Made by a program: the position numbers and the translations under genes. From Candidatus Riflebacteria bacterium HGW-Riflebacteria-2 (GTDB lineage Bacteria; Muiribacteriota; Ozemobacteria; Ozemobacterales; Ozemobacteraceae), in the NCBI GenBank assembly GCA_002839435.1, contig PGYA01000016.1, positions 1 to 64,000 on the forward strand: DNA of 64,000 bases, written 5' to 3'. Of the stretch, positions 61,001 through 61,894 are shown in pieces. Below the pieces are notes generated by a model, which was given only the letters and a program-made list of their open reading frames with translations, was not told the origin of the DNA and did no database searches. Numbering within the stretch: the first letter of the stretch is position 1; each line of letters starts with the position of its first letter.

Positions 61001-61182
61001 TGAGTGCGCAGACAGGGATCTCATAAGCGAAAACTTTTTGCACAGGGAAGTGCTTATGCCGAGCTGCGCAGGATAGAGCAGCTCGGCCGAGCCAGGCAAT
61101 ATTGACGCAAAGCCATAGCTATATACCCTAAATTGCGTCTGGTGAGAGTTGTAGCGTTGAGACCCTGTCGAGAGCACGGGTA
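61001..61182 (+). repeat. ~180-bp direct repeat, copy A. Candidate structured RNA with GEMM-like motifs.
   Basis: About 80% identical to 61732..61894. It carries 'GCACAGGG' (61040-61047) and 'GACGCAAAGCC' (61104-61114). It has a perfect 10-bp hairpin 'gccgagctgc [gcaggataga] gcagctcggc'. Confidence 0.5.
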
Positions 61183-61263
61183 AGCAAGGCATATCTTGTA
61201 ACCGCAAATCTACGCAATATAGGCAATCCCACCTAAGACTGAATCTTTACGATTGGTGTACAT

Positions 61264-61290
61264 AAAAACGCCCGGCGGTTAGGCCGGGCG
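61264..61290 (-). terminator. Rho-independent terminator for the small gene 61316..61567.
   Basis: 'cgcccggc ggttag gccgggcg'. On the minus strand it is followed by TTTTTATG. Confidence 0.55.
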
Positions 61291-61315
61291 AGCAATAAGG
61301 TCTGGTGTAAGATGA

Positions 61316-61567
61316 TCAGTCGGTGACTCTGATCTTTTGTGAGATGCGGCGCTTGGTGTGGTCGAGAATCTTTTCGATGTCTTCGTAGGTACCTGAGAAC
61401 ATGGCTAACTCGAGATTGCGGGCTATTTCGCCAATGAATCTCGCTTCGCGCAGGTTAGCCGACTCAAGAGTGCGCCCGATTTTTTCGAGGAATTCGCCGA
61501 ACGAAATCGTTGACTTTTCGAGCTCAGAGCATGAATCCCACACTATTTCAAGGTGTTCCTTCTTCAT
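61316..61567 (-). CDS. Small hypothetical protein, 83 aa, predicted all-helical.
   Basis: It is flanked by the direct repeats and has its own terminator. The product is 'MKKEHLEIVWDSCSELEKSTISFGEFLEKIGRTLESANLREARFIGEIARNLELAMFSG...'. Confidence 0.4.
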   Translation of the reverse strand: MKKEHLEIVWDSCSELEKSTISFGEFLEKIGRTLESANLREARFIGEIARNLELAMFSGTYEDIEKILDHTKRRISQKIRVTD

Positions 61568-61731
61568 GTTTTACCTCTCATTGTTTCGATCTAGATATTA
61601 TTATACACAAAGCTTCTTGAAAATCAAAGCATATTGCGCGAAAATCAAAACCGAAATGTGGTTCATCCTGTTCAAGCTTACTATGTTAATGAAACCGTAG
61701 ATTTACACGAACTGAGGGCGCAGGCAGGCAT

Positions 61732-61894
61732 CCCAAAAGCGTAAACTTTTTGCACAGGGAGGTGCTTATGTCGAACTGCGCAGGATAGAGCAGTTCGGCC
61801 GAGCCAGGCACTATTGGCTCAAAGCTATTGCTATAAACTGAAAGACGCGTCTGGGGAGAGTTGAAGCGTTGGGATCCTGCCGAAAGCCCGGGTA
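61732..61894 (+). repeat. ~165-bp direct repeat, copy B, in the 5' leader of the aminotransferase gene.
   Basis: It aligns with copy A throughout. The hairpin has two changes relative to A: position 2 is C-G in A and a U·G wobble in B, and position 6 is G-C in A and A-U in B (compensatory). Copy B ends ~60 nt before the ATG at 61958. Confidence 0.5.

Follow-up and report, generated by a model that had tools for sequence, protein, structure and literature searches.

Several families of small mobile repeats are known in bacteria, and the repeats studied here are best understood beside them. The bcr1 element of the Bacillus cereus group is about 155 bp long, is flanked by 5-bp direct repeats and is transcribed, and its cruciform-like RNA fold is kept by compensatory changes (PMC3184786). 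The Correia (nemis) elements of Neisseria and the ERIC elements of enterobacteria, which form long hairpins as RNA, belong to a class defined by terminal inverted repeats, a target-site duplication, a size below 400 bp, the lack of a transposase gene and many intergenic copies (definition in PMC3184786). REPIN hairpins commonly show compensatory changes (PMC3116915). The window we analysed is a stretch of 64,000 nt from Candidatus Riflebacteria bacterium HGW-Riflebacteria-2 (contig PGYA01000016.1), which contains two similar repeats, copy A and copy B, around a small gene at 61316-61567. A first-pass annotation had proposed them to be a cis-regulatory RNA resembling the cyclic di-GMP (c-di-GMP) riboswitch of the GEMM type. 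We hold instead, with a probability of about 85%, that they are copies of a dispersed, non-autonomous mobile repeat family of MITE type (miniature inverted-repeat transposable element) found in a few Rifleibacterium relatives, copy A being a full MITE and copy B a bare core.

The repeats form a direct, gap-free pair of 182 nt, with copy A at 61001-61182 and copy B at 61713-61894, and are 84% identical (BLAST E = 3e-53). The pair had been correctly recognised in the first-pass annotation, except that copy B was said to start at 61732, which is 19 nt late; its register is that of copy A plus 712. The 10-bp hairpin reported there is likewise present (61058-61087 in A, 61770-61799 in B), with stem position 2 going from C-G to U.G and position 6 from G-C to A-U. 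The structure is more extensive than that, as the entire unit of about 179 nt folds on the plus strand, with energies of -72.1 and -80.8 kcal/mol for the two copies (z = -4.1 and -5.4), into a long interrupted closing helix enclosing three inner hairpins. Comparison of A with B alone gives four compensatory pairs, three of them in the long closing helix, and no broken pair among 48. The structured core can be placed on the plus strand at 61002-61180 in copy A, where 48 base pairs are predicted in 8 helices, and at 61714-61892 in copy B, both in the long form of 179 nt. R1, a covariance model derived from A and B, scores the two cores at 222.4 and 222 bits. Neither BLAST nor R1 found further copies in the window. 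Open reading frames (ORFs) on the minus strand run across the repeats (60995-61207 and 61686-61811); they have no Pfam match and recur only as spurious ORFs across other copies.

Copy A sits inside an element with the architecture of a MITE. This element covers 60968-61250 on the plus strand (283 bp) and consists of a 13-bp left terminal inverted repeat, GTAAGGATTCAGT (60968-60980; family consensus GTAAAGATTCAGT), 21 nt of left shell, the 179-nt core, 57 nt of right shell and a 13-bp right terminal inverted repeat, ACTGAATCTTTAC (61238-61250). It is bracketed by an 8-bp target-site duplication, GATTGGTG, identical at the two junctions (60960-60967 and 61251-61258). In six copies, copy A among them, the similarity spans -36 to about +71 around the core. 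The same combination of 13-bp terminal repeats and 8-bp duplication, which we call A-type, is found at 14 independent insertions, whose cores may be short or long and with or without an optional block in the 3' arm. All 14 duplications are 8 bp long with at most one mismatch and are specific to their site, as illustrated by GATTGGTG in the window and by GCAAAGTT, ACCTGATT, GCCGTCTG, TTTGCCAT and CCAAAGGA elsewhere. The whole copy-A element folds as a single rod (-105.5 kcal/mol, z = -6.1). Across the family the elements measure 230-330 bp, contain only spurious short ORFs and occur in many dispersed copies, which agrees with the size and copy number of MITEs.

The relatives of this organism show the locus with and without the repeats. 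The closest named homologues of the class-V aminotransferase encoded downstream of copy B come from metagenome-assembled genomes (MAGs) of Candidatus Riflebacteria (Rifleibacteriota), and the window region itself is identical to one ENA contig and one 186-kb JGI contig. In relatives whose aminotransferase is 72-83% identical the gene order is the same as here (truA, an 83-aa ORF, the aminotransferase, a WbsX-like glycosyltransferase and a radical SAM protein), and the two intergenic gaps that measure 686 and 391 nt in the window are only about 100-190 nt long. R1 gives no match in these syntenic relatives, and the alignments show the flanking landmarks kept and the repeats absent; in four of them (L003, L004, L006 and L008) the orthologous intergenic regions contain neither copy. 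The closest relative (91%; L009) does have a copy upstream of the same aminotransferase gene, in the opposite orientation and with different flanks and a different shell. Such presence/absence polymorphism at orthologous sites is a further property by which MITEs are recognised. With its terminal repeats, its duplication, its small size, the lack of a transposase gene, the many copies and this polymorphism, copy A is a full MITE.

Outside this locus the family is dispersed and narrowly distributed. Of 185,579 species-representative genomes, only two contain an exact two-block pattern: it matches at six places in Ca. Rifleibacterium amylolyticum CH46, each on a different scaffold, and at seven in one uncultured MAG, which makes 13 matches in all. 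A looser pattern retrieved 113 metagenome stretches, mainly from anaerobic digesters and activated sludge, and a viral origin found no support in IMG/VR (0 matches). R1 recovers 130 copies, which reduce to 98 distinct cores once optional blocks are removed. In two independent assemblies of the closest relative (L009:1-187 and L010:1-187, from JGI and ENA) the contig stops 9 nt past a family copy; the repeats therefore fragment metagenome assemblies of this lineage, and several copies of the second MAG also lie at contig ends.

The commonest form of the core is about 128 nt long, and the 179-nt form of the window is the same scaffold with an added block of 51 nt and two hairpins (61037-61087 in copy A and, in the register of A plus 712, 61749-61799 in copy B, both plus strand). 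It is this block, missing from the 128-nt form, that holds the 10-bp hairpin in both copies and the string GCACAGGG in copy A. Two more optional blocks occur in the arms of the closing helix, one of about 52 nt in the 5' arm and one of about 47 nt in the 3' arm, and searches for the optional blocks as independent mini-elements found essentially none outside family copies. An intermediate core of 151 nt (L062:2098-2248) has kept the first hairpin of the 51-nt block and lost the second; the deletion runs exactly between two GCCGAGC direct repeats, which suggests that blocks are gained and lost by slippage or recombination. Partial or tandem family copies adjoin full ones in two places (L055:~6069-6108 beside L055:5879-6007, and the left flank of L102:13626-13752), suggesting nested or adjacent insertions.

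These additional copies allow the fold to be assessed far beyond a comparison of A with B. In an alignment of 17 copies, 97.9% of the informative cells are in standard pairs, compared with 32-40% when the partners are slid by one to three columns; 8 pairs have changes in both partners, and 500 shuffles never gave values as high. An explicit count of pairs was used for this instead of RNAalifold, which lost the outer helices on the 17 copies, some of them being truncated and two having an insertion in the 5' arm. The 98 distinct cores hold 3200 Watson-Crick, 248 G.U, 13 A.C and 63 other cells, and at 13 pair positions two Watson-Crick types occur while half-changed intermediates are nearly absent (GC 79 and UA 18 at one such position, GC 65 and AU 32 at another). 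The core fold is under selection. On this point the first-pass annotation was right, with evidence much stronger than it could see from two copies; the GEMM-like, cis-regulatory function that it attached to the structure did not hold. It had also envisaged that an empty Rfam search might come together with further copies that look like a decaying segmental duplication. Rfam is indeed empty, and further copies do exist in other genomes, but they covary, so decay does not describe them. The excess of G.U over A.C cells suggests that a single strand folds, either as RNA or as single-stranded DNA. Among twelve A-type elements, identity is 96.2% in the core scaffold and 85-86% in the non-terminal shell. 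Constraint, or else homogenisation by gene conversion, therefore acts on the core more strongly than on the rest of its element. Candidate causes of this conservation are a requirement in cis for mobility, a function at the RNA level and gene conversion.

The core is found in more than one setting. There is a second type of shell, which ends in CTCTGTCACATTTG... at CTAG sites, and the largest subfamily of the core (C-type) has outer ends other than those of copy A, with (A)CTAG before TCCTCTGTCACATTTGAATTG on one side and CTTATGTGACAGAGGA before CTAG(T) on the other. IS630 is reported in PMC2170065 to target TA within CTAG. This CTAG shell may resemble IS630 or IS5, as its ends would be compatible either with IS630 insertion at CTAG or with 4-bp duplications of the IS5 type. 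To the right of one C-type copy lies a short sequence with CTGTCACATATGAG...GAATGTCAG termini (L014:~6480-6560), perhaps a shell without a core, perhaps some other small element. Flanks of further kinds occur among the remaining copies. Copy B, L012a and about a dozen more consist of a bare, sharply bounded core: at the outer ends of copy B we found no terminal repeats and no duplication, and its flanks match no other member past about 13 nt. Compared with relatives about 280 nt were apparently gained around copy B; divergence of the intergenic sequence blurs the exact limits of this gain.

The A-type shell can be compared with a known family of insertion sequences. The IS66 family is marked by inverted repeats that begin with GTAAGCG and by 8-bp direct repeats (PMC11946415). 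The A-type ends also start with GTAA and make 8-bp duplications, and judged by these features IS66 would be the most similar family; the A-type terminus, GTAAAGATTCAG, has only GTAA in common with GTAAGCG, and no IS66-type transposase with such ends was found in the 1.05 Mb of sequence searched. Because no transposase was found, we can only infer this assignment.

The copies are intergenic: 19 lie in divergent spacers, 11 in convergent ones and 27 in tandem ones. Of the tandem copies, 19 point the same way as the genes and 8 the opposite way, a bias that is not significant (p = 0.052). When the ORFs within 3 kb of 97 copies were clustered, no recurrent neighbour protein emerged apart from duplicates of the same locus. 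No Y1 transposase or RAYT was seen within 3 kb of any copy, and the 1.05 Mb of fetched sequence contains no full-length element with the same termini around a transposase. Paired termini 0.4-6 kb apart occur in only two cases. One, a pair of 478 bp (L083 and L086, one locus in two samples), was considered as an autonomous element and rejected, being too short for a transposase gene; the other, of 2969 bp (L075), encloses ORFs that look by eye like ordinary genes. The element itself yielded neither a promoter nor a terminator.

Taken together, copies A and B most probably represent two independent insertions of one small non-autonomous element family that is found here only in a narrow Rifleibacterium-like group. 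Its conserved unit is the core of about 128 nt, in which a long irregular closing helix surrounds an inner hairpin, with up to three optional blocks. This core travels inside different outer shells. The terminal inverted repeats and 8-bp duplications of the A-type shell lead us to infer cut-and-paste insertion by a DDE transposase, presumably supplied in trans. The fold of the core may be kept since the element needs one strand folded, as single-stranded DNA or as RNA, in order to spread or to be tolerated. Any influence on nearby genes, for instance the longer aminotransferase leader caused by copy B, would then be a by-product of insertion with no sensor function.

Several observations weigh against this view. 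No cognate transposase was found in the fetched sequence, so that mobilisation in trans and the IS66 and IS630/IS5 labels come from the termini and duplications alone. The bare cores, which comprise copy B and about a dozen others, have neither terminal repeats nor a duplication. The strand call depends on about five G.U positions that many copies have inherited, and the short form of the core folds equally well on either strand, so thermodynamics gives no strand call. Many copies come from related populations, and the counts are therefore of non-independent events. Finally, a selfish cut-and-paste MITE has no obvious need for an internal fold and conserved loops, and the contrast of 96% against 85% between core and shell may therefore reflect some additional function or gene conversion between cores.

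The evidence also bears on four other explanations. The riboswitch proposal, a GEMM-like c-di-GMP sensor or other cis-regulatory leader RNA of the class-V aminotransferase operon that was locally duplicated, started from real features: the strings GCACAGGG (61040-61047) and GACGCAAAGCC (61104-61114) are both there and resemble conserved strings of GEMM-I, the structure covaries between A and B, and copy B lies on the sense strand between a promoter-like site and the aminotransferase start, its end being 65 nt from the ATG (61958). Likeness to c-di-GMP-I goes no further than these strings and this position. A search of the whole window at gathering thresholds gave no match to RF01051 (c-di-GMP-I), RF01786 (c-di-GMP-II) or any other Rfam model, and a permissive scan (E<=10, 60600-62100, both strands) gave nothing on either repeat, with only weak matches at the terminator of the small minus-strand gene. 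The leader position is not conserved, as the orthologous leaders of four relatives have no repeat and the copy of the nearest relative is inverted. Copy A points at the terminator of a convergent gene and not at an ORF downstream, more than 100 copies adjoin unrelated genes in either orientation, and copy A bears transposon ends and a target-site duplication. Even the block with GCACAGGG and the 10-bp hairpin is dispensable: most of the family lacks it, and in the copies that have it the loop varies. With Rfam, synteny, orientation, dispersal and transposon ends all against it, a c-di-GMP riboswitch or dedicated cis-regulator is not supported, and we regard it as very improbable. We give still less credence to a slowly decaying local segmental duplication around the gene at 61316-61567. 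Two direct copies at 84% identity do bracket this one small gene; however, relatives without any flanking repeat have the gene in the same syntenic position, copy A has terminal repeats and a duplication of its own and resembles copies from other genomes (up to 91-94%) more than it does copy B, and every stem difference between A and B keeps pairing.

The remaining two alternatives both give the core a life of its own. The core could be a functional structured non-coding RNA of a new class, acting in cis (processing, stability or termination) or in trans, that hitch-hiked in at least two kinds of MITE shell and was kept by the host or the element for its RNA function. Put more broadly, the 128-nt core might be an undescribed module of RNA or single-stranded DNA with its own function, in cis transcript processing or stability or as a cofactor of its own mobilisation, which was captured and spread by at least two unrelated shells and is held near-invariant by selection while the shells decay. 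The better conservation of core than shell in the same elements, the covariation with hardly any half-changed pairs, the conserved loops and the G.U to A.C asymmetry all favour this, as do the occurrence of the same core bare and in unrelated shells, optional blocks that, in the manner of expansion segments, sit at junctions or internal loops and were not seen by themselves, and the mild co-orientation with flanking genes. But that orientation bias is not significant and copies also occupy convergent and divergent spacers, the element has no recognisable promoter or terminator, no protein gene is associated with it in the 3-kb neighbourhoods, the very narrow clade is more typical of a selfish repeat, and gene conversion among more than 100 cores could also yield the homogeneity; we therefore see either version as a tentative and rather unlikely account. 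In the other alternative the bare core is itself the replicative unit, a single-stranded DNA hairpin moved by an HUH/Y1 transposase in the manner of REPIN-RAYT or IS200/IS605-like systems, and the A- and C-type shells are other MITEs that cores entered and with which they were then co-amplified. Movement by an HUH/Y1 transposase needs no terminal repeats and makes no duplication. This would fit bare cores with sharp, constant boundaries in unrelated flanks, a strand-specific fold with compensatory changes as in REPINs, and a core nested in two unrelated shells. On the other hand, bare cores show no conserved 4-5-nt target motif on their 5' side, a multi-branched core of 128-179 nt is unlike short GC-rich REP doublets, and no Y1 transposase was seen near any copy, though a single-copy RAYT could lie elsewhere. 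Nor did an A- or C-type shell empty of a core come to light, though no search was aimed at one. We consider this route unlikely, and less likely than a functional RNA core.

A MITE-type family with a structured core has clear parallels among the known systems, and also differs from each of them. Like bcr1 (PMC3184786), it is a small non-coding repeat, dispersed in intergenic regions, with short flanking direct repeats, a multi-stem fold kept by compensatory changes and positions that are not conserved between close relatives. There is no sequence kinship with bcr1, the direct repeats are of 8 bp and not 5 bp, and modular optional blocks and at least two outer shells set the Riflebacteria family apart; bcr1 is, besides, known to be transcribed. 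The A-type elements share with Correia and ERIC all the properties by which we described these above, together with a rod-like fold of the whole element, but here conservation is highest in an internal, asymmetric, multi-branched core rather than at the termini, and this core is found in differing shells or bare. REPINs are likewise non-autonomous intergenic hairpin elements that persist vertically in a narrow lineage and show compensatory changes (PMC3116915), and the bare cores also have no duplications. REPINs, however, are symmetric REP doublets of about 70-110 nt linked to a single-copy RAYT that is flanked by REPs, whereas our core is larger (128-179 nt), asymmetric and multi-branched, no RAYT was found within 3 kb of the copies, and the A-type elements use terminal repeats and an 8-bp duplication. 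We found no literature on repeats in Riflebacteria; a search for 'Rifleibacterium' gave only a nomenclature list.

The surroundings of the two copies have features of their own. The 83-aa ORF at 61316-61567 (minus strand) has no Pfam match and, in every Riflebacteria relative examined, keeps its syntenic place after truA and before the aminotransferase operon; a strong terminator for it lies at 61269-61290. Between this ORF and copy B is an overlapping divergent pair of promoter-like sites (61600-61645), TTGATT-16-TATAAT on the minus strand and TTGAAA-17-GAAAAT on the plus strand (61617-61645), whose sequence is kept in relatives and which match the consensus only. If the plus-strand site is used, copy B would be transcribed within the 5' untranslated region of the aminotransferase gene. 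In the 91% relative the family copy is inserted directly upstream of the GAAAAT box. After copy B follows an apparent operon (61958-64000, L001:10001-13070) for the class-V aminotransferase, the WbsX-like glycosyltransferase and the radical SAM protein, which is kept across relatives. A second, unrelated small repeat family is present as a 206-bp insertion at 60690-60895 (region 60680-60905) with a 10-bp direct repeat, CGATTTCGAT, on both sides; it is absent in relatives and includes a terminator-like hairpin at 60730-60756. Other copies of this second family lie in the window at about 16118-16226 (minus strand), in CH46 (L011:37-180, 97%) and at several metagenome loci.

The family described here is a further case of the kind of small mobile repeat known from bcr1, ERIC, Correia and REPIN. 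Less usual are the much stronger conservation of an internal structured core than of the transposon ends around it, and the presence of one and the same core in different shells or with none. The analysis removes a false riboswitch candidate, and shows that even strong covariation between two local repeats is not a sufficient basis for calling a cis-regulatory RNA, given that mobile repeats also covary. It also documents a first MITE-type repeat family in the candidate phylum Riflebacteria, plus a second unrelated one nearby. These repeats remodel promoter-proximal regions, with copy B adding about 250-280 nt to the leader of the aminotransferase-glycosyltransferase-radical SAM operon. If the conservation of the core reflects a function at the RNA level, the family would provide a useful natural example of a structured RNA that is spread by transposon hitch-hiking.

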